Shown here piece by piece: positions 1-28,731 of a DNA stretch of 35,365 nt. Origin of the DNA: a virus. A model generated the notes under the pieces. It had not been told where the DNA came from. It saw nothing but the letters and a program-made list of their open reading frames with translations, and made no database searches. A program made the translations under genes and the position numbers. The stretch lies in UHGV virus genome UHGV-2010328; one strand, 5' to 3'. How positions within the stretch are numbered: the first letter of the stretch is position 1; every line of letters begins with the position of its first letter.

Positions 1-141
1 TTACTGCTTACACTGTAAGAACGCCGCAAACTCCGCTCCCCAGAAGCTCATCCGTATTTCGCACAGCGAACCGTGCAGCATCCAGATGATGAGGATTGCC
101 GTCACGCAGAACGTGATGGCCGTAAGCGATTTTTGCGACAT
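1..141 (-). CDS. Hok/Gef-family type I toxin (46-aa small membrane peptide)
   Basis: ATG at 141..139, stop TAA at 3..1. Translation MSQKSLTAITFCVTAILIIWMLHGSLCEIRMSFWGAEFAAFLQCKQ has an N-terminal TM helix and the Hok-like SLCEIR ... E(V/F)AAF motif. Below the ORF-track length cutoff. Confidence 0.6.
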   Translation of the reverse strand: MSQKSLTAITFCVTAILIIWMLHGSLCEIRMSFWGAEFAAFLQCKQ

Positions 142-331
142 AGCACTTGCTCCTTTTCCGGAGAGGCGCTAACCTTTCACTTGTCAAGGTAATGCGGTTA
201 GGGCCTCGGTTAAACAGAGATGTTTTCCGGGGCCTTTCCACATCTGGCCTTCGGGTATTCCCTCCGACCATCAGCCGAAAGGCACCCGCGCGTAATCTAT
301 CGCTTTTTTGTTGCTCCGGCAATTCTGCCTG
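142..331 (-). promoter_or_regulatory. putative hok leader / mok-sok-type control region (not resolved)
   Basis: Inference only: Hok-family genes are normally preceded by an overlapping mok frame and an antisense RNA. The 8..322 minus-strand ORF overlaps hok in another frame. Confidence 0.25.
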
Positions 332-592
332 TTAATTCTGAGGTAAAGGTAAACTCATCTGATTGTTTCCCCTGTGTGAAGCTGGCAGCTCATGCCACGG
401 GATACCATCTGAAGAGTGAACGCCGGAGGCGTGTTTCGATGTGAATTTATGGAAAGCTTCCAGTGTTGAGAAGCATACGCCGCATTCTAGGTTGTTACAT
501 TGGTAATACTTTTGCCGGACGGTGTTTGAATCATTTTCCGGACGACTTGTGCGGATACGGGCAGATGCGCCACAAAGCGGACAACGGAACAT
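332..592 (-). CDS. ogr: Ogr/Delta-family zinc-finger late-gene transcriptional activator
   Basis: 86-aa ORF beginning MFRCPLCGASARIRTSR ... YYQCNNLECG, a C-x2-C ... C-x4-C motif arrangement matching P2 Ogr (MFHCPLCQHAAHARTSR ... YHQCQNVNC). Confidence 0.8.
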   Translation of the reverse strand: MFRCPLCGASARIRTSRPENDSNTVRQKYYQCNNLECGVCFSTLEAFHKFTSKHASGVHSSDGIPWHELPASHRGNNQMSLPLPQN

Positions 593-916
593 TGCTACCC
601 CTCCATTTAACGTGATGCTTCCGTTATTTTTAGTTGCACTATGCAGATTCTAGCTGACTGAATCTTTGATTAAAAGTTCTTCTATGCTCATAACTCGATC
701 TCGTAAGAATCTCAACTTGTATAAATTTATTAACATAAATATATACTAATAATTAAAATAGTTGCGTTTGCTGCCATAATATGCAGTTAGCCATTACAGA
801 AGATGAATATTTAACCATAGGTAAGATATAAACTGGATGGTATAAAATACCTAGGTGAGTAACTAATTATATTTAATTATTTTGGATATTAGTCACTCAC
901 CGTGGTATTAGGGAAA

Positions 917-1321
917 CTAAATACTCTCTTGGTTCTTTTTGATTGTTTTTAGAGTTTTCAGATAATGGTTTTTCCTGTCAAAACTTTGTTTTACTAATTC
1001 TTTATCGGTTGGTGATAAATTTTCTATGTCATCCAATGTAAACTCATCTTTTATTTTTTCTTGTAGCATTCTCTCAAGCTTTTTATATTTCCTGATGGCG
1101 ATTTTGTTGTAAAACCAATTAACCATAAGAGGAAGAAATAAAGATATAAATACAGTCGACTTACTATAGTTTTCTATTCCTATTATATCCTTCACCCGCT
1201 CAGAAAAAGGCAGGGTGAGTATAATGCTGGCAATAATTGAAGCCAGAAAACCGTATGCCAATCTACGGACATCGTGGTTAGCCTCCTGGATTGCGGGAAT
1301 TGTGTCATTAGTTTTTGACAT
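917..1321 (-). CDS. hypothetical small membrane protein (two predicted TM helices, lysine/glutamate-rich C-terminal tail); cargo gene 2
   Basis: 134-aa ORF, ATG 1321..1319 preceded by GGAGG. Hydrophobic segments LAYGFLASIIASIILTLPF and STVFISLFLPLMVNWFY. AT-rich. Overlaps the upstream gene by 14 nt. Confidence 0.55.
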   Translation of the reverse strand: MSKTNDTIPAIQEANHDVRRLAYGFLASIIASIILTLPFSERVKDIIGIENYSKSTVFISLFLPLMVNWFYNKIAIRKYKKLERMLQEKIKDEFTLDDIENLSPTDKELVKQSFDRKNHYLKTLKTIKKNQESI

Positions 1322-1868
1322 GCCCCTTCTCCTCCGCGTTTTGTTTATCTATCATCTTTATAGAACTTTCATCTATAAACATACTGGCTTCCAGGAGGGC
1401 AATTATCATGCTTCCCAAAATAGAGGACAGTCTAATTGATGCTTTTTTTGAATCATCATTTTTTCCATCGTATTTTGAATAACCAAAATAATCTTCGAAT
1501 AGAAGGCTTTCAATGTCATCAAAGAAGAAAAAGGATGTAGTTGTAACAATTATTGGTTTTTTGTCTATTATCTGAAACTTTACATTTGTTTTATTGAATT
1601 TAATTGATGTGTCATTAACTATCTTAACTAGCTCCATCATGTTATTTGCTACTGGGCGATTAACTATACTCATTGTGAGTGATGGAGAAAATCCTGAATC
1701 ATCAAAATTCAAATAATACTGAATTACAGGTGATTCATCTTTGTCTTCTTTATCTATGAAACTTTGTATTATTTTTTTATTTAAAGTCGAGCCATCACTT
1801 TCATTATATAATTCAATATTATCATCATGTCTAAGGGCTACACTATCGCGAATCAAATCAATTAACAT
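1308..1868 (-). CDS. hypothetical protein, no recognisable motif; cargo gene 1
   Basis: ORF 1308..1874 begins with TTG; first ATG at 1868..1866 (MLIDLIRDSVAL...) with GAGG upstream. Very AT-rich, acidic, Asn/Lys/Ile-rich composition unlike the flanking phage genes. Confidence 0.5.
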   Translation of the reverse strand: MLIDLIRDSVALRHDDNIELYNESDGSTLNKKIIQSFIDKEDKDESPVIQYYLNFDDSGFSPSLTMSIVNRPVANNMMELVKIVNDTSIKFNKTNVKFQIIDKKPIIVTTTSFFFFDDIESLLFEDYFGYSKYDGKNDDSKKASIRLSSILGSMIIALLEASMFIDESSIKMIDKQNAEEKGHVKN

Positions 1869-2092
1869 TATCAAAAGACCTCAATTGTTATTTCATGCGT
1901 AATTATACTAAAAGTATCTTAAAAACAGCAACATTTTACATTGGTGATACCTATATGTTGATTGTCCCTCTGAAGAGGGGGGAGCTGCTTTTACAATAAT
2001 GAATGTAGGGCATTCTGGCGCAGAGCGGTCAGTCTGATAGGGTTGTGTCATAATCGTGTCAGTGCATGCCTGAACTAATACATCTAAGTTGC

Positions 2093-3193
2093 TCACTCTG
2101 TTTCTGCTATCCATTCCGGGATTTTTGCTTCAAGCTCAAGCTGTGTGGTAAAGCCACTGTTATCAATAGAATGCTCAACTTTTGCAATAATCCAGTCCTG
2201 ATTGTCGATGTCGCTTTTAAAGCCTGCCACCGTGCCATGCATTTCGGGGTAGAGTTCAGCGCGACCACGTGCCAGCGTGATGGAGAATGATGCGGCTCCG
2301 CGTTGTAGCTGTTGCCACTTTGCCGCCGCTGCGCGTCTTGCTGCCTGCTCGTTCTGATAAGTCTTGCGTAACACAAACACGTTGCCTTCCGCGCCTTCCA
2401 TATAGTCGCCTTCCCGGCTGCTGCTTTTCTCCTTTTTCGGTTTGCGGCGTTTCACGCTGACTTTTTTCTTTTTCCCGTAATTAAGATCAAGCCAGTAGGC
2501 GCGTACACCCGTATACGCCTCGCGGTCAGCAATGCGAAACTGATGGCGATCGCCGCTGCTGCGTGTGATGGCAAACGATGGCAATGGTTTTCCCTGCGCG
2601 TTCACGCCACCGCCTGGCATGATGAATAACAGATTACCGCTTTTTACCGTGGTGATTGCGCCCAGCATTTCCGCCATGCGCGTAAGGAAGGACATGTCAC
2701 TTTCTTCGGTCTGGTCGGCGTGGTCGATTTCGATATCCATCAGCATTTCGCTAATTTGCGGTTTCAGACCGTACCGATGAGCGATGGCGGATACCACACG
2801 CTCAACGGTCACATCATGCCAGGACACCTCACGTTTAACGTTAAATTCATCCCGAAAATCTGCGCTTCTGGCCGAAATGGTCAGCCTGTCCGGCGGTCCT
2901 TCGTGAGCGATTTCATCAACAATGTAAGTGCCTTTTTCTGTCAGCGGTTCTCCTTTCCAGCCAATGAGAACCGTCAGGCGCGCGCCCCGTGGCGGTAGCT
3001 GCAACTGACCATCCGCATCATCCAGCGTGATGGTGAGCTGGTCCGCCTCAAATCCCCGGTTGTCGGTCAGTGACAGGCTCATCAGGCGCTCTGCCACGCC
3101 TGACAGCGTTTTACCCTCCGCGAGAATATCAAAATCCGGCATTTTCACGGGGTCTGTGCCCTGACTGAGCAATTGCATGGTGGTGTCGGTCAT
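2093..3193 (-). CDS. D: tail protein D (P2 gpD-like)
   Basis: 366 aa from ATG 3193..3191 (MTDTTMQLLSQGTDP...) with GGGAGGG upstream. The in-frame upstream extension to 3325 is rejected. Length and position fit gpD. Confidence 0.8.
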   Translation of the reverse strand: MTDTTMQLLSQGTDPVKMPDFDILAEGKTLSGVAERLMSLSLTDNRGFEADQLTITLDDADGQLQLPPRGARLTVLIGWKGEPLTEKGTYIVDEIAHEGPPDRLTISARSADFRDEFNVKREVSWHDVTVERVVSAIAHRYGLKPQISEMLMDIEIDHADQTEESDMSFLTRMAEMLGAITTVKSGNLLFIMPGGGVNAQGKPLPSFAITRSSGDRHQFRIADREAYTGVRAYWLDLNYGKKKKVSVKRRKPKKEKSSSREGDYMEGAEGNVFVLRKTYQNEQAARRAAAAKWQQLQRGAASFSITLARGRAELYPEMHGTVAGFKSDIDNQDWIIAKVEHSIDNSGFTTQLELEAKIPEWIAETE

Positions 3194-3350
3194 CTGTTCC
3201 CTCCCTGTGCGGCATGGTCGCATGTGCGTGCGGAGGGGGTTACTGCTTTTTGTTGTCGCCGGGTCGGGAGAACGGCGCAGGGGTGAGATTACGCGCGTGG
3301 TGGGTGATGATTGTTGCCGAATCATTTAACGGATACAAGGGGCTGAAGCT

Positions 3351-4535
3351 ATGAGTGAAACTCGTTTTCATGGTGCCCGTGTTACGGAAAATACCGACCT
3401 GGTAACAGCGATTAACGATGTTGATTCCAGCGTTATCGGTATCGTGGCAACGGCGGATGATGCGGACGCGAAGCTGTTCCCGCTGAACAAGCCCACACTG
3501 CTGACCCGCGTCAATGACGTGCTGGGAAAATGCGGGACAACGGGGACGCTTTATCGTGCACTTAAGGCCATCGCAGACCAGGTGAGCACAAAGGTGATCG
3601 TCGTTCGCGTGGCTGAACACAAAGAAGAAGACGGAAAGACGCAGGATCAACTGGTTATCGGTGGTTCTGAGGATGACGGCAGCTATACGGGGATGTATGC
3701 GCTGCTTGTTGCAGAGCAGGATGAAAGCATCGGATACCGTCCGCGTATTCTGGCCGCGCCGGAGCTGGACACGGAGGCTGTAACAAAATCCCTGTGCGTG
3801 ATTGCAGGTAAACTGCGCGCGTTTGTGTATGCCTCATGTTACGGCTGTAACACGATGGCTGAGGCGATTACCTACCGCCAGAAATTCAACGAACGTGAGG
3901 TGATGCTCTTATGGCCGGACTTCATCGCCTACAACCCGAAAAGTGGCAAAAACGAAACGTTCCCCGCGCCTGCCTATGCGTGCGGCCTTCGTGCGTACAT
4001 TGACCATGAGCAGGGCTGGCACAAATCATTGTCCAACGTTCCGGTTAAAAATGTGCTGGGGATGTCGAGGCATGTGTTCTGGTCGTTGCAGGCCGAAGAC
4101 AGCGATGCCAACAGCCTCAACAACAAAGAAATCACGACCATTATTCGTCGCAACGGGTTCCGCTTCTGGGGCAACCGCACACCGGAAACGAACGCCTACA
4201 TCTTTGAGGTGTATACCCGAACCGCACAGGTGCTGGCTGATTCAATTGCGGAAGCGCAGTTTGAAACCATCGACAGTCCACTGACGCCTGCGAATGTGAA
4301 GGATGTTATCAGTGCCATCAGGGCAAAACTGGATTCGCTGGTTACTGCCGGGAAACTGATTGGTGCGGAGTGCTGGTATGACGTGGTGGATAACGGCACC
4401 ACGAATTTACGTCAGGGGCGTGTGCGTATTCGCTACAAATATACGCCCGTTCCGCCACTGGAAGACATGGAGCTTTACCAGACGTTTACTGATGAATACT
4501 TTGAACCCGCATTTGCGGTGCTGGGAGGTGCCTGA
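3351..4535 (+). CDS. FI: contractile tail sheath protein (gpFI-like)
   Basis: 394 aa, RBS AAGGGG before ATG 3351. Followed by tube, E/E', tape measure and U in canonical order. Confidence 0.85.
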   Translation: MSETRFHGARVTENTDLVTAINDVDSSVIGIVATADDADAKLFPLNKPTLLTRVNDVLGKCGTTGTLYRALKAIADQVSTKVIVVRVAEHKEEDGKTQDQLVIGGSEDDGSYTGMYALLVAEQDESIGYRPRILAAPELDTEAVTKSLCVIAGKLRAFVYASCYGCNTMAEAITYRQKFNEREVMLLWPDFIAYNPKSGKNETFPAPAYACGLRAYIDHEQGWHKSLSNVPVKNVLGMSRHVFWSLQAEDSDANSLNNKEITTIIRRNGFRFWGNRTPETNAYIFEVYTRTAQVLADSIAEAQFETIDSPLTPANVKDVISAIRAKLDSLVTAGKLIGAECWYDVVDNGTTNLRQGRVRIRYKYTPVPPLEDMELYQTFTDEYFEPAFAVLGGA

Positions 4536-21211: not shown

Positions 21212-22081
21212 TCAGAAGTCAGCCAGTTGGTCGGAGGCTGCGCCCGTTGCGGTGAACCGGTTCTGCGGATCGCCGTCCTGCGTGCGCAGTTTTTCCTTCA
21301 GTGCTGCCAGCTCTGTGGTCAGTGATGTGATTTTCTGGCTGTCCTGCTGATGGCGGGTTTCCAGTGTATTAAAACGGTCGATAATGTCGGCCTGTGACGT
21401 TGCGACACCTTCCACCGCTTCCTTAATACGGGAGAAACTGGCGTCATCCGCTTTGCGGCCACGGCCAATAATCCCCATAACGCGGTTAAACCACTGGGTG
21501 CCTTCTTCCTGACGTTGTTCGGTGAGTTCGATAAGTTCTGACTCCATAGCGGCGGTAAACATCGCCACGTCTCCCTGCTGACAGTTGAATGTCATCAGTT
21601 GCATACGTTGTTGTGCCGCAAAGGCCAGACGTTCCGTGCCCAGGCTGGCGGGGGTGTCGGTCATTGCCAGCCCGCGCAGGTAAGGGCCTCCCGTGATGGT
21701 TGACTGTGGTTCCAGCTCAATACTGGAGTAAATTTTTTTACCATCGTTAAGCAGGGACATCATGCGAGCGGTCGGCTCAATTTCGGCATACAGTGCCGTG
21801 CGACCTGCCAGCGGGCCATCGGTTATGTCTTCGGTGCTCAACCCCACAACATCGCCCATAGCGGAAAACTCGCTACCGGGGAGTGGTGACAGGATGTGCT
21901 CAATATTCACACGTGCACCATAAACGGACGGGTTATAACTGGTGGCGGCAGCTTTCAGCATGTCGCCGTTGATTTCGCGCCCGTCTGCCGTTACACCGGA
22001 GACAGCCACGCGAAACTTTTTGCGGGATGTCTTTTTTTCATTAGCCATAGTTTTTGCCATCATGACTGGTTCTTCAGTCAT
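21212..22081 (-). CDS. O: capsid scaffolding protein O (gpO-like)
   Basis: 289 aa (internal starts at M7/M8 possible), ...FRVAVSGVTADGREI.... Divergent from P across a 121-bp intergenic region. Confidence 0.8.
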   Translation of the reverse strand: MTEEPVMMAKTMANEKKTSRKKFRVAVSGVTADGREINGDMLKAAATSYNPSVYGARVNIEHILSPLPGSEFSAMGDVVGLSTEDITDGPLAGRTALYAEIEPTARMMSLLNDGKKIYSSIELEPQSTITGGPYLRGLAMTDTPASLGTERLAFAAQQRMQLMTFNCQQGDVAMFTAAMESELIELTEQRQEEGTQWFNRVMGIIGRGRKADDASFSRIKEAVEGVATSQADIIDRFNTLETRHQQDSQKITSLTTELAALKEKLRTQDGDPQNRFTATGAASDQLADF

Positions 22082-22202
22082 GATGGCAAAGCGTAACAGG
22101 CTGATACAAAGGGCTTTTGTTGTAAGAAAACAGTCAGAACAGGGGGTTAAGGAGAACGGTTTCGCGCGCGGGTAATCTTCCTGTAATTACTCAGGGGGAG
22201 CA
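22082..22202. promoter_or_regulatory. divergent late promoter region (P_O / P_P equivalent)
   Basis: Intergenic between the divergent O and P starts. No Ogr site (TGT-N12-ACA) could be pinned down confidently. Confidence 0.4.
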
Positions 22203-23954
22203 ATGATTCAGGACGCTTTTGTGCGCCAGCGTGCGCGACAACTTTACTGGCAGGGTTATCCGCCCGCAGAAATATCACGTCTGATGGGAATAAACCCGAA
22301 CACGATTTATGCGTGGAAAAAACGCGACCAGTGGGATGAAACGCCACCCGTGCAGCGTGTCACGCAGTCCATTGATGCGCGCCTCATCCAGCTTACTGAA
22401 AAACAGAATAAAACAGGCGGTGACTTTAAGGAAATAGACCTGCTGACCCGGCAGCTTAAAAAGCTGCATGATGGCCAGCCGGATGTGATGGCCGCAGGAA
22501 AGAAAGGCCGGGCGAAAAAACTCAAAAATCATTTCACGCCGGAACAGATTGCTGCACTGCGGGAAAAAATCATCAGCAGGCTGGAGTGGCATCAGCGGGG
22601 CTGGTTTGACTCCCTGACCCTTTGCAGGGAAGCCGGGATACGTAACAGGATGATCCTGAAATCCCGACAGATTGGGGCGACCTGGTATTTTGCACAGGAA
22701 GCACTGCTGATGGCGCTGCGTGACGATGTGGCGCAACCTTACCAGCGTAACCAGATTTTTTTGTCTGCGTCGCGTCGTCAGGCGTTCCAGTTTAAAAGCA
22801 TTATTCAGAAGGCCGCGGCTGAAGTTGATGTGGAGCTGAAAGGGGGCGATAAAATCATCCTCTCCAACGGCGCAGAGCTGCATTTTCTCGGCACTTCTGC
22901 TGCGTCGGCACAGTCCTATACGGGCAATTTTTATTTTGATGAATTTTTCTGGGTCAGTCGCTTTGCTGAACTGCGCAAGGTGGCTGGCGCTATGGCAACC
23001 CTCAGCGGACTGCGGCGCACCTACTTCTCCACGCCATCCACCGAAACGCACGAGGCATACGCCTACTGGAACGGCGACCGCTGGAACGAGAAAAAGGCCT
23101 CGCATAAACGCCAGCGTTTTTCTGTGGACTGGAAAACGCTGCATAACGGGCTTATCTGCCCTGACCGGACGTGGCGGCAAATTGTCACGCTGGAAGATGT
23201 GGTTAATCACGGCTGGAAACACACCGATATTGACGAAATCCGTGATGAAAACACCGAAGACGAGTTCCTCAATCTCTATATGTGCGAGTTTGTTCGCGAA
23301 GGGGAATCGGCATTTAACCTGAATATCCTGATTGGCTGCGGTGTTGACGGATACGACGACTGGAAAGACTGGAAACCTTTTGCTCCCCGCCCGATGGGGA
23401 ATCGTTCGGTATGGATTGGGTATGACGCAAACGGCAGCAGTGGCAACGGCGACAGCGGCGCTGTGTCCGTGGTGGTTCCTCCGGCTGTTCCTGGTGGCCG
23501 TTTTCGAACGGTGGAGACGCGACGCGTTCAGGGGCTGGAGTTTGAAGAACAGGCCAGAGTCATTGAAGAGTTCACGTATCGCTACAACGTGGAACACATC
23601 GGCATTGATGTGACGGGCGGGAACGGGGAGGCTGTTTATCAGATAGTGAAACGGTTTTTCCCTGCTGCTATTCCGTACACCTTCACGCTGTCATCAAAAC
23701 GGTCGCTGGTACTGAAAATGCTGCAAATAATGCGTGCCGGGCGGTGGGAATACGATCGCGCCGAACGCGAGCTGGTCGCGGCCTTTAACGCCGTGCGTAA
23801 GGTGAAAACACCGGGCGGCTTTATCACTTACGAAACGGACCGCGCGAGGGGGATCAGCCACGGCGACCTTGCGTGGGCAACCATGCTTGCTGTCATTAAC
23901 GAACCGATTGGCGGCGAAGGAGAAAACGAGCGTTTCACGGTTATGGAGTTCTGA
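22203..23954 (+). CDS. P: terminase large (ATPase) subunit P (gpP-like)
   Basis: 583 aa, RBS GGGGGAG, Walker-A-like SRQIGAT. Followed by the portal gene with TGATG overlap. Confidence 0.85.
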   Translation: MIQDAFVRQRARQLYWQGYPPAEISRLMGINPNTIYAWKKRDQWDETPPVQRVTQSIDARLIQLTEKQNKTGGDFKEIDLLTRQLKKLHDGQPDVMAAGKKGRAKKLKNHFTPEQIAALREKIISRLEWHQRGWFDSLTLCREAGIRNRMILKSRQIGATWYFAQEALLMALRDDVAQPYQRNQIFLSASRRQAFQFKSIIQKAAAEVDVELKGGDKIILSNGAELHFLGTSAASAQSYTGNFYFDEFFWVSRFAELRKVAGAMATLSGLRRTYFSTPSTETHEAYAYWNGDRWNEKKASHKRQRFSVDWKTLHNGLICPDRTWRQIVTLEDVVNHGWKHTDIDEIRDENTEDEFLNLYMCEFVREGESAFNLNILIGCGVDGYDDWKDWKPFAPRPMGNRSVWIGYDANGSSGNGDSGAVSVVVPPAVPGGRFRTVETRRVQGLEFEEQARVIEEFTYRYNVEHIGIDVTGGNGEAVYQIVKRFFPAAIPYTFTLSSKRSLVLKMLQIMRAGRWEYDRAERELVAAFNAVRKVKTPGGFITYETDRARGISHGDLAWATMLAVINEPIGGEGENERFTVMEF

Positions 23955-25831: not shown

Positions 25832-26209
25832 TTATCCGCGTATATACCTAAAGGACTGAGGTGGTACAGCGCCAGGTATCAATTCATTAAGTGGAATTGG
25901 AGTATCATAGCGCAGAGGGTTTTTTACTTCTATTGCGAATCCCTTGTCTCTTTCTGAAAAATATTCATCAAAAAAATCCCGCGTAATACCTGCATACTTT
26001 TTTGTCATATTCCATAATTCATCTGGCTGAGATGACAAAACCTTTTCAATTTCAAACTCACCAATTACCTTTCCGACGGGCATTGTTGCATAAATAATAA
26101 CCGCTCGGACTTCTTTGTTCCGAAAAATTGTCTTCCTGAATTCGAATTTTTTATATCCATTTAAAATGGATTCAGCGAACTCTGGTTTAATCGACAATAA
26201 AATTTTCAT
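25832..26209 (-). CDS. stand-alone ASCH/PUA-like domain protein (125 aa)
   Basis: MKILLSIKPEFAESILNGYKKFEFRK... matches the ASCH-type N-terminal motif. ATG 26209..26207 overlaps the upstream gene by 23 nt. AT-rich. Confidence 0.55.
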   Translation of the reverse strand: MKILLSIKPEFAESILNGYKKFEFRKTIFRNKEVRAVIIYATMPVGKVIGEFEIEKVLSSQPDELWNMTKKYAGITRDFFDEYFSERDKGFAIEVKNPLRYDTPIPLNELIPGAVPPQSFRYIRG

Positions 26210-27242
26210 TAACCTTTCCCGCGCTTAAAACAGCTTTGAAGTGAACATCACTTAACGTGAAGAACCCTGAATAGCTTGGAGTATAACCTAAAATACTCAA
26301 CAATTCATCTCTAATTATTCTTTTTTGCAAAGGGAAATTGTAAGTTAACTTAATTACATGTGGAGGATAACATCTGCTATAATAAGCATATAATTCTTCA
26401 TCAGAAAAAATACTGGCGCCTCCACAATAAGACTTAAACTCATCATATGATAAAAATTCTCGAATGTTTTTATACTCTTGTAATGTACAAACAGAAGTAA
26501 CCACCGACCGATATTTCGCCGCTCCCTGTCCATCTGTCGTTCGATAAATAATTATATTATCTCCTGGCTGAAGAAGCTCCATGCCTTTCATCGCGCCAAT
26601 ATATATCTTATGAATACTATTAGTATAAGTAACATCTTCTAAAATAGAATCATTTTCATTTTTTAAAATTGACTCCGGGAAAAGCCTTGAATGAAACTCA
26701 GGTTTAATGGCTAATAAAAAATTTCTTCCATTCATTTTTATCATAGGATAATTATTATAAAATGATGCTGCTGATGGCTTCCAGTTAAAATCCTTAAAGT
26801 AGACACCTTCACAACCGTTTTCCGTCTCAAGATTTTTTCTTGAACACAATTTAAAACCATAGCGTTCAAGTAAACGAATCAATCCTTGATGTTTGTCAAA
26901 GATAGTAACGTACACTTCCTGAATATCATGAGGCATTGCAAAGTCAAATATTTTTCTTACAAATCTCTCCCCCATTTTCGTTCCACGAGCATCAATTTTA
27001 AATGTTCCGCATTTAAGACGTTTTTTCATAGGGAAAGATGGGGTCATGTCATTTAATTCCTCATTTTCAATTTTGAGGTATAAAAAACCATCTATTTTCC
27101 CATAATCATCATAAGATACGTATGCTTTCTCATTTCTTTTCTTTAAGAACCAGCTTTCAAAAGTTGGGTAGTCATTTTTAAGCGAGTCAAAAAAAACATC
27201 TGAGAGGTCAACCTTCCCAAATTCGACATAACTAAGAGACAT
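26187..27242 (-). CDS. GNAT-like acetyltransferase fused to a C-terminal ASCH/PUA-like domain (351 aa)
   Basis: ATG 27242..27240 with AGGA RBS (ORF-track 5' extension rejected). N-terminal half has GNAT-like core motifs (ARGTKMGERFVRKIF ... EVYVTIFDKHQGLIRLLERYGFK); C-terminal half has ...FLLAIKPEFHSRLF... like the downstream ASCH-like protein. Domain assignment is by eye. Confidence 0.5.
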   Translation of the reverse strand: MSLSYVEFGKVDLSDVFFDSLKNDYPTFESWFLKKRNEKAYVSYDDYGKIDGFLYLKIENEELNDMTPSFPMKKRLKCGTFKIDARGTKMGERFVRKIFDFAMPHDIQEVYVTIFDKHQGLIRLLERYGFKLCSRKNLETENGCEGVYFKDFNWKPSAASFYNNYPMIKMNGRNFLLAIKPEFHSRLFPESILKNENDSILEDVTYTNSIHKIYIGAMKGMELLQPGDNIIIYRTTDGQGAAKYRSVVTSVCTLQEYKNIREFLSYDEFKSYCGGASIFSDEELYAYYSRCYPPHVIKLTYNFPLQKRIIRDELLSILGYTPSYSGFFTLSDVHFKAVLSAGKVNENFIVD

Positions 27243-27354
27243 TGTGCCATCCTTTTCAGTAGGTATTTTGCAAAAAACGTTACTGTATCTCAAAATATAT
27301 GTAAATAAACTTAGATCAAAAAAATGCTTACTAACGCTTTGTCTTACCGGGGCT

Positions 27355-27455: not shown

Positions 27456-27767
27456 TCATTGAGGGAACATGGCCTGTATATTCTTTTTCATCTGTGTAAC
27501 GTTGTTATTCTCTGTATCCTGCTGTGGTGATTTATTTCGTGGCGTTGGTGTGAGCGGCTGACTGAATCCGCCTTCAGGCCATTCAGCCAGCCAGTAAGCA
27601 AAGGCAGGATCGGTTTTGATGAGTGCCAGTCCAGCCAGAAATGCCGCGCGTTGCGCGCGGCTGCGTTCGGAGGCTGGCAGGTTGTCGAGATAATTACACG
27701 CTTTCCGTTCACTCTTGACGGCTGCTGGCTTCAGATAGAAACTTATTCTTCTGGTTAATGTCGCCAT
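27456..27767 (-). CDS. parR: ParR/StbB-like partition adaptor protein
   Basis: ATG 27767..27765 with AGGAG RBS (ORF-track extension rejected); 103 aa, MATLTRRISFYLKPAAV...ERSRAQRAAFLAGLALI resembles R1 ParR. Immediately downstream of parM. Confidence 0.7.
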   Translation of the reverse strand: MATLTRRISFYLKPAAVKSERKACNYLDNLPASERSRAQRAAFLAGLALIKTDPAFAYWLAEWPEGGFSQPLTPTPRNKSPQQDTENNNVTQMKKNIQAMFPQ

Positions 27768-27771
27768 GGGG

Positions 27772-28731
27772 TTACTCCTTATCCATAGCGTACAGACCGT
27801 TAACCAGAGCAAACTGTGGCACCCCGTCCGCGATGAAAGTCGCATTAACTCCGCAGGCTTCGCGGATCGCGGGTGCCACAATCTCCGCCCCGCCACCGAC
27901 AACCATCACCCGCCCATACCCCGAAAAACCAGCCAGCGCGCGGATCACGCGTTGTTTCAGTGTTTCCTCCTTTTCACGAATAACTGCCATCAGGCTGGCG
28001 TAATGTGCGTTATTGTGGATGTGCTGGCGCAGCCAGGCTTCATCGTGGCGATGTTCGATAATGGTATTGGCGATGTGGTGGCTGGTACGCATACCGTTGG
28101 TGGCCATCACCGACAGAACGGCATCAGCCATCAGAGAAACGCCTACGTGTGGATCGCAAAACACCTGGCTGATACCTGCCAGTTGTCCCTGAACCTTTGC
28201 CACATCCAGCGTGGTTCCGCCTAAATCCACAATCAGCAGGGATTCAAACGGACTCATGTCAGCCAGTGCCTTAAAGCCAGCCGGAATGGATTCAGGCATA
28301 ACCCGTACGTTACGGATAGTGAATGCTTCGCCGTTCTGGTACTCCACCGGGCGTATGACGTTCGCTTTTTTGCGGTTGATGTTGGCCATGTCCGGTTGTG
28401 CGTTTGTGTCGAAATACTCGCTCAGTGGCAGGGTGACAACCACATCCACCTCCTGTGGCGTGATGCCTGATTTGACCAGCGCGTGATGAATGGCAATGAC
28501 ATTCACATCGCTGTACTGGTATTGCGTGTCGGTCGTCTGGACAAAGCGATCGCTGACCGGATCAAAACCATAGCGCACGCCATCAAGCATGTAGTTCGCG
28601 GGCTGCATGCCACCGAACGGCGCAGACCATTCCGATTTGAAGCTGTTCGGGCTGATGGCGTTGCGGCGTTCGCCGTTCTCAGTCCATGCCAGCTTGATGT
28701 TGGTGGAGCCGTCGTCGATACAAATTTTCAT
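27772..28731 (-). CDS. parM: ParM/StbA-like actin-type partition ATPase
   Basis: 319 aa, MKICIDDGSTNIKLAW...ISPNSFK...YSDVNVIAIHHAL...VMPESIPAG...DLGGTTLD...VVGGGAE; close to plasmid R1 ParM throughout by recollection. Confidence 0.85.
   Translation of the reverse strand: MKICIDDGSTNIKLAWTENGERRNAISPNSFKSEWSAPFGGMQPANYMLDGVRYGFDPVSDRFVQTTDTQYQYSDVNVIAIHHALVKSGITPQEVDVVVTLPLSEYFDTNAQPDMANINRKKANVIRPVEYQNGEAFTIRNVRVMPESIPAGFKALADMSPFESLLIVDLGGTTLDVAKVQGQLAGISQVFCDPHVGVSLMADAVLSVMATNGMRTSHHIANTIIEHRHDEAWLRQHIHNNAHYASLMAVIREKEETLKQRVIRALAGFSGYGRVMVVGGGAEIVAPAIREACGVNATFIADGVPQFALVNGLYAMDKE

Follow-up and report, generated by a model that had tools for sequence, protein, structure and literature searches.

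A two-gene AT-rich accessory cassette in the D-ogr cargo slot of a P88-like prophage

The A-B cassette and its host prophage

The window analysed here, a stretch of 35,365 nucleotides (nt) of the viral genome UHGV-2010328, contains at positions 593-2092 a self-contained accessory cassette, or 'moron', which occupies a cargo slot between the tail gene D and the late-gene activator gene ogr of a P88-like prophage. The G+C content of this segment is 0.327, compared with a mean of 0.523 (standard deviation 0.056) for the other 1.5-kb segments of the window (z = -3.5), and it stays at 0.29-0.38 across positions 600-1950. The only other island that is equally AT-rich is the classical gpA-portal hotspot at ~25.5-27.3 kb. 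A first-pass annotation had pointed to about 1.5 kb of strongly AT-rich DNA at a place where phage P2 has ogr directly after D, and both parts of this statement were borne out: the D-ogr spacer of P2 is 81 nt long and holds only the annotated ogr promoter, and that of phage P88, like those of ~70-75% of the sampled relatives, measures 42 nt.

Two open reading frames (ORFs), genes A and B, lie between ogr and D, both on the minus strand. Gene A (1308-1868) encodes an acidic soluble protein of 186 amino acids (aa) from its ATG, or 188 aa from an upstream TTG as given in the ORF list, and gene B (917-1321) a predicted inner-membrane protein of 134 aa with two transmembrane helices and a charged helical tail. 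The genes overlap by 14 nt, with the start codon of B lying inside the end of A (ATGTCAAAAACTAA), and the sequence GGAGGAGAAGGGG precedes the B start. The conserved left flank of the slot is D (2093-3193, minus strand; Pfam Phage_GPD, E 1e-17), and the conserved right flank is ogr (332-592, minus strand; Pfam Ogr_Delta, E 5e-14). For D, a length of 366 aa was also called in identical loci; a longer ORF of 410 aa begins at an upstream ATG.

Judged by sequence matches, the cassette may have the anatomy of a moron, with a promoter-like site upstream and a strong, terminator-like hairpin downstream. The promoter-like site (TTGCTG, 18 nt, TATAAT; 1902-1931, minus strand) is a consensus match only; the scan returned nine sites against 7.1 expected, among them a second one upstream of A, TCAACA-17-TAAAAT at 1961-1933. 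The terminator-like hairpin (846-909, minus strand) directly follows the B stop codon, and consists of a 14-bp stem and a 20-nt loop followed by a U-rich stretch. Its predicted RNA fold reaches -25 kcal/mol, against -12.2 +/- 2.6 in shuffled sequences (z -4.9). A further, G+C-rich hairpin of the type CCCTCT-TCAG-AGAGGG is found between D and A (1965-1982). It gave a terminator-like match on the plus strand only, the T-run being absent on the coding (minus) strand, and its function is uncertain. No RNA family was detected inside the cargo by an Rfam and tRNA scan of positions 1-3400.

The flanks of the cassette are 94-96% identical to Escherichia phage P88, to Xuanwuvirus and to related prophages. 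The prophage that carries the cassette is P88-like (Xuanwuvirus) and belongs to the P2 family without being P2 itself. The P2 context given in the first-pass annotation thus holds for the family and not for the element, which belongs to a lineage in which the tail block FI-FII-E-T-U is inverted relative to D. A DNA invertase gene adjoins this block (beyond U in the annotation of Escherichia coli M10), and such tail-block inversions have been noted in P2-like phages (bioRxiv 10.1101/2024.10.15.618418). The cargo itself is 99.9-100% identical to that of a prophage of E. coli M10 (GCF_001901125.1) integrated between btuC and ihfA.

The D region (2093-3350, minus strand) and the tail sheath gene FI (3351-4535, plus strand) are divergent. 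Because of this divergence and of the inversion of the FI-U block, D would need its own late promoter in the D-FI interval of ~160 bp. In RefSeq, D is often annotated as a 'VgrG/Pvc8 family' protein of 263-266 aa together with a 93-nt pseudogene on the opposite strand (for example at 21501-22345 of locus L001); since an intact 366-aa D ORF is present, the shortened version is probably an annotation artefact.

The D-ogr slot and the frame around its cargo

The D and ogr flanks (hok-ogr/D) were found in ~1640 of 5426 complete E. coli genomes (~30%). Loci with full flanks numbered roughly 1100. To determine the occupancy of the slot, the hit lists were sampled twice at even intervals, giving 38 and 40 loci. 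D and ogr were adjacent, with the 42-nt spacer, in 27 of the 38 loci of the first sample and in ~29 of the 40 loci of the second, and the other 25-29% of the sampled loci were filled with inserts of 1-4 kb at the same nucleotide position. At least 12 different cargo types were distinguished, including those at the filled loci of other E. coli P88-like prophages (L014-L019, L030-L033). Three of them are known defence systems, recognised by PADLOC or NCBIfam models, namely Thoeris type I (ThsA 2.7e-202, ThsB 3e-70), SIR2-HerA (2.7e-155 and 8.5e-253) and GAPS6, in which GapS6a (136 bits for NCBIfam antiphage_GapS6a, whose cut-off is 90) is accompanied by a 930-aa partner. At least eight cargos had no full-length PADLOC match. 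These include a DUF3800 protein (Pfam), PIN-domain proteins of 500 aa (Pfam PIN_4) and 356 aa (RefSeq annotation) and three hypothetical proteins of 221, 295 and 489 aa, all without a PADLOC match, and a SEC-C/YecA-type protein (Pfam) without a full-length one. Every insert that was measured is AT-rich (33-42% G+C against 52%).

Since alternative AT-rich cargos, including Thoeris, SIR2-HerA and GAPS6, occupy exactly the same point, D-ogr is a true defence-carrying hotspot in the P88-like lineage. The A-B cassette shares with these three systems its insertion point, its flanking frame and a comparable size and AT bias, but the proteins are unrelated, and the three are recognised defence systems whereas A-B is not. 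By this strong context A-B is a credible new candidate, for which a defence role is plausible. The first-pass annotation had described the site as a non-classical one for P2 cargo. It does lie outside the two classical hotspots, but it is a recurrent hotspot and not a one-off, being occupied in about a quarter of the sampled prophages.

The named hotspots of the P2 family are gpA-portal and tail-fibre/FI (PMC9122126, PMC9519451), and minor ones have been listed at int-att, at int-primase and 'within the tail genes' (PMC13586616). For P2-like phages, a 'third hotspot between a tail protein and CI' has also been mentioned (bioRxiv 10.1101/2024.10.15.618418). The D-ogr slot is not explicitly described in this hotspot literature (PMC9122126, PMC9519451, PMC13586616). 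The cargos known from P2 and P4 hotspots (old, tin, Z/fun, and a reverse transcriptase-nitrilase protein with a transmembrane effector) are, like A-B, AT-rich swappable prophage cassettes set between conserved genes of the P2 family (PMC9122126, PMC9519451, PMC13586616). Many of these were unannotated before they were tested, and several pair a soluble protein with a transmembrane effector. Unlike them, A-B sits at D-ogr rather than at gpA-portal or tail-fibre/FI, and neither A nor B has a PADLOC v2 match.

All filled sites share a frame, which in the direction from D to ogr reads: D stop, G[CAACTTAGA]TGTATTAGYTCAGAC...CTGAC, cargo, small hairpin, CTGTCAGTTGGAATCTGAGCTAGTA[CAACTTAGA]ATAGCGG...ATG(ogr). 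The 9-bp direct repeat CAACTTAGA is present once in the empty site (L020) and twice, flanking the cargo, in filled sites. The inverted arms of ~23 bp (TAGCTCAGA-N6-CTGAC) are imperfect and agree at 16-17 of 23 positions. This frame is constant around 11 unrelated cargos, which may lie in either orientation. In the window, all four elements are read on the minus strand. The left direct repeat (2083-2091), directly after the D stop, is intact, as is the left arm TGTATTAGTTCAGGCATGCACTGAC (2058-2082), an imperfect inverted repeat of the right arm that is kept at the D side of 12 of 12 filled sites. The right arm GTCAGCTAGAATCTGCATAGTG (637-658) is a degenerate copy of the consensus GTCAGTTGGAATCTGAGCTAGTA, and the right direct repeat CAACTAAAA (628-636) is likewise degenerate, with matches at 7 of 9 positions. 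The consensus right arm and repeat together read TTGGAA-17-TAGAAT, a sigma-70-like arrangement that is a plausible candidate for the ogr promoter.

The frame was not found around homologues of A-B in other phages, which makes it a feature of the slot rather than of the A-B module. It may be a transposon-like insertion scar, made up of a target duplication and terminal repeats; alternatively, it may represent the ancestral spacer, from which the empty sites were derived by repeat-mediated deletion. It was also considered that the inverted arms go back to an ancestral terminator hairpin between D and ogr, one half of which now stands on either side of the insertion. With regard to this last idea, the P2 spacer is unrelated in sequence, and no framed site without cargo occurred in the samples. 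That the frame stays constant whichever cargo it encloses suggests that cargos are exchanged by a specific mechanism.

Other parts of the prophage are variable too. The gpA-portal hotspot of the window (25832-27293 and 27456-28731, both minus strand) forms the second AT-rich island, and holds the PADLOC candidate system PDC-M11 (M11A 4.8e-131; M11B 5.7e-51, with an ASCH domain) beside partition genes of the ParM/StbB type. E. coli M10 carries an Ea22-like gene at this site, so that the window differs from M10 outside the A-B cargo. At the other end, a hok/gef toxin gene truncated by the edge of the window (1-141, minus strand) is part of a hok/gef and sok-like region (1-287, minus strand); the sok-like antisense RNA matched Rfam RF01794 with 48 bits (E 5e-9), below the gathering score of 59. 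This module is located between ogr and the prophage end, and is kept in nearly all P88-like prophages. One variant carrying A-B (L036) has an N6/N4 DNA methyltransferase gene (2784-3569) downstream of ogr in the usual place of hok/gef, and because of this replacement the interval between ogr and the attachment site can also be regarded as variable.

Relatives and products of A and B

The A-B pair is accessory cargo and not part of the phage core, as the first-pass annotation had supposed: it was detected in only two of the 5426 complete E. coli genomes, M10 and, at 93% identity, BEC1-S17-ESBL-09, against the ~1640 that hold the flanks. It was found in P88-like prophages at no fewer than three attachment sites (ihfA, greA and ytfP). 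Searches with blastn and tblastn gave no match in 50,697 phage records or 72,556 plasmids. A word-indexed search of 5.8 billion clustered proteins returned near-identical E. coli copies and the proteins P0006, P0012 and P0013 only, and a HMMER scan of 1.84 billion representatives with A returned P0007 and P0009. The same scan also matched P0008 and P0011, two repetitive proteins that were dismissed as compositional. No relative of A or B was present among the GTDB species representatives, only near-identical copies of the pair were found in IMG/VR and the JGI metagenomes, and a literature search by RefSeq protein accessions gave no result.

Distant homologues, 28-53% identical, occur in three other phage backgrounds as an ordered A-then-B pair. 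A siphovirus-like contig of 41% G+C (L034/L024), with a DUF927 primase, ProQ and a lambda-type tape measure gene, encodes an A of 190 aa (49% identity) and a B of 138 aa (53%) with the same 14-nt overlap. A second pair (L021-L023; A 31%, B 28% identity) lies between S and V of another P2-like phage. In L003, a B homologue (50% identity) is convergent with a divergent D gene, on a contig too short to show A. The module (26-36% G+C) greatly exceeds its surroundings in AT content in each of these contexts. Because order, pairing and overlap are kept across such distances, A-B can be regarded as a single functional unit, in line with the two coupled genes of the first-pass annotation. At L021 (22-354 and 1559-2200), from a metagenomic phage, the first residues of an ORF that ends in the S-family domain nearly replicate the N-terminus of V (IPNNDIPRLL compared with IPKNDIPRLL), which suggests a duplication at the insertion junction.

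Comparison of the two E. coli variants gave ratios of nonsynonymous to synonymous substitution rates (dN/dS) of 0.19 for A and 0.35 for B, indicating that both genes are under purifying selection. From one carrier lineage to the other, synonymous divergence (dS) amounts to 0.15-0.21 for A and B, similar to the 0.16 of ogr, and A-B has therefore probably travelled with its flanks throughout the divergence of the prophages. Of the earlier proposal of a recent horizontal acquisition, the part concerning AT-rich foreign DNA stands, whereas 'recent' found no support, and the dS values argue against a very recent arrival.

These data bear directly on the reading that A and B are non-functional remnant ORFs in foreign AT-rich DNA. 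Their rarity and the lack of any family membership would agree with it, but it is largely refuted already by the conservation evidence: the ORFs are intact, evolve at dN/dS of 0.19 and 0.35, keep order and overlap at 28-53% identity in three other phage backgrounds, and, in the case of A, yield a confident AlphaFold2 (AF2) model from only four sequences. Such a reading is scarcely credible.

It was also considered that A and B serve the lytic cycle of the phage itself, in lysis timing, membrane remodelling, counter-defence or the exclusion of P4 satellites, and are expressed by readthrough of the D transcript. The pair is co-oriented with D and ogr, late transcripts may enter it because the coding strand lacks a T-run at the hairpin that follows D, and homologous pairs lie within late tail or baseplate regions of other phages. 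However, A-B is dispensable, since ~99.9% of related prophages lack it, as does every one of the 50,697 deposited phage genomes, and it is bounded by promoter-like and terminator-like signals of its own. A lytic-cycle function consequently appears quite unlikely.

In agreement with the first description of a 186-aa acidic protein without recognisable motif and a 134-aa protein with two transmembrane helices and a charged tail, neither product gave a match above threshold in Pfam, PADLOC, PHROGs or NCBIfam. The A protein has an isoelectric point (pI) of 4.75, with 31 acidic (D+E) and 22 basic (K+R) residues, and a search of PDB sequences returned no match. Its AF2 model, calculated from a four-sequence alignment, is fairly confident (predicted local distance difference test score, pLDDT, 79.3; predicted template modelling score 0.77), and predicts that residues 1-124 fold into an alpha/beta sandwich, which is followed by a disordered acidic loop and, at the C-terminus, by a long helix (138-182). 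This helix is among the most conserved and most confidently modelled parts of the protein. The invariant residues contain no catalytic-type motif, and the model tentatively suggests that A is a small acidic partner-binding protein rather than an enzyme. Low-scoring Foldseek matches in PDB and BFVD to CA domains of histidine kinases, a biotin ligase and tail completion proteins were dismissed as non-specific.

At the level of the fold only, A can be compared with the YbjN family and the CesT class I secretion chaperones (6-11% identity, Foldseek TM-scores of at most 0.37), from which it differs by an extra helix between strands 1 and 2 and by the C-terminal helix of 45 residues. Neither A nor its homologues matched these families in Pfam or NCBIfam. 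This likeness would allow A to be a CesT-like chaperone of a type III secretion system, with B as a small transmembrane effector carried as prophage cargo like other effectors encoded outside the locus of enterocyte effacement (non-LEE effectors). Such a function is highly improbable: proteins of the YbjN family, which are not secretion chaperones, match A equally well or better, and the 45-residue helix is additional. Moreover, the N-terminus of B is unconserved and in the homologue P0013 highly charged, homologous pairs occur in unrelated metagenomic phages, and M10, a commensal of mice, carries espL1 as a pseudogene.

The B protein is basic (pI 9.4), with hydrophobic segments at residues ~21-40 and ~56-75 and a tail of ~60 residues rich in K, R and E. 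Both helices have their flanking positive charges on one and the same side, and by the positive-inside rule both termini are predicted to be cytoplasmic (N-in/C-in). The AF2 model of B is all-helical and of low confidence (pLDDT 55), and was used for helix boundaries only. The second transmembrane helix (TVFISLFLPL-VNW-YN) is nearly invariant, and together with several positions in the tail is kept down to 28% identity. A sequence search of the PDB gave coiled-coil matches only, which were rejected as noise. For B and its 50%-identical homologue P0006, the best Pfam match was to SieB (PF14163), with 14.2 and 15.4 bits, below the gathering score of 26 bits. In these two independent homologues the sub-threshold match spans the second transmembrane helix and the basic stretch that follows. 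The similarity is a lead and does not amount to membership of the family. SieB of lambda and P22 is, like B, a small prophage membrane protein, but it works without a partner, whereas B always occurs together with A.

Proposed function of the A-B pair

From the location and context of the cassette and from its layout, we tentatively favour the reading that A-B is a two-component, membrane-acting exclusion or abortive-infection module expressed in the lysogen. The effector would be B, a small predicted hairpin in the inner membrane, whose strongly conserved second transmembrane helix and cytoplasmic tail may either perturb the membrane or stop an infecting phage at a step of its entry or assembly. 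The A protein would be a cytoplasmic, non-enzymatic, chaperone-like binding partner of B, and translational coupling would provide for the production of both in a fixed ratio. A may keep B inactive until infection, in the manner of an antitoxin, or may sense a phage product and then activate B, in a RexA-like manner. We infer the anti-phage role, the interaction of the two proteins and the direction of regulation from this context.

In lambda, RexA and RexB are prophage-borne and dispensable, and the gene of the soluble cytoplasmic protein immediately precedes that of a small inner-membrane protein, with which it is co-expressed. By analogy, the same layout of a sensor or regulator and a membrane effector is proposed for A-B; comparison of A-B with RexA and RexB revealed no homology.

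Several observations weigh against an exclusion or abortive-infection module. No defence family was matched in PADLOC, Pfam, PHROGs or NCBIfam, and in PADLOC-DB v2.0.0 no family reached E<=1 for A or for B. Hotspots of the P2 family also hold cargo unrelated to defence, such as the ParM/StbB partition genes in the same prophage, and partition genes and cytolethal distending toxin have been reported from P2 hotspots (PMC9122126). The extreme rarity of A-B implies that it has not been strongly amplified by selection. In addition, the model of B is of low confidence, and its SieB matches (14-15 bits against a cut-off of 26) fall on a transmembrane-plus-basic stretch and may be compositional. The pair is nevertheless neither a set of conserved core genes at this site nor clearly homologous to any known non-defence function, the two findings that the first-pass annotation had named as contradicting its proposal.

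A related possibility is that A-B is an addiction or stress module of toxin-antitoxin character that plays no part in defence against phages. B would then act as a small toxin in the membrane, neutralised by A as an acidic antitoxin or chaperone, and the module would stabilise the prophage or confer another trait of lysogenic conversion. The layout is that of type II toxin-antitoxin systems, with an acidic upstream gene product (pI 4.75) and a basic downstream one (pI 9.4), a 14-nt overlap and translational coupling. The chaperone-like binding fold modelled for A would suit this role, and a membrane-toxin module, hok/sok, is already present at the same end of the prophage. On the other hand, neither protein matched a family of toxins or antitoxins, no DNA-binding domain, which most type II antitoxins possess, can be recognised in A, and the context of the slot is enriched for defence. 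An addiction function is thus doubtful, and it overlaps with the exclusion or abortive-infection reading, as many toxin-antitoxin modules themselves defend against phage.

A bolder proposal is that A-B founds a new two-component anti-phage family, in which a YbjN/CesT-like protein gates a two-helix membrane effector, and that D-ogr is a framed site, holding at least 11 unrelated cargos, at which cargo is exchanged by a dedicated site-specific or transposon-like process and not by homologous recombination alone. This combination is a long shot. If it were true, the unannotated D-ogr cargos would constitute a ready-made discovery set.

Swappable defence cassettes in prophage hotspots are a phenomenon already known for P2 and P4. 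The new point is that the common P88-like lineage has a well-populated hotspot at D-ogr, with about one quarter of the sampled loci occupied. Hotspot surveys based on known systems see little of it, since the majority of its cargos go unmatched in PADLOC, and the eight or more unannotated cargos provide a list of candidates at an easily recognised site. A-B, conserved as a pair across unrelated phages, is a clean and compact 1.5-kb candidate for a new membrane-acting defence mechanism.

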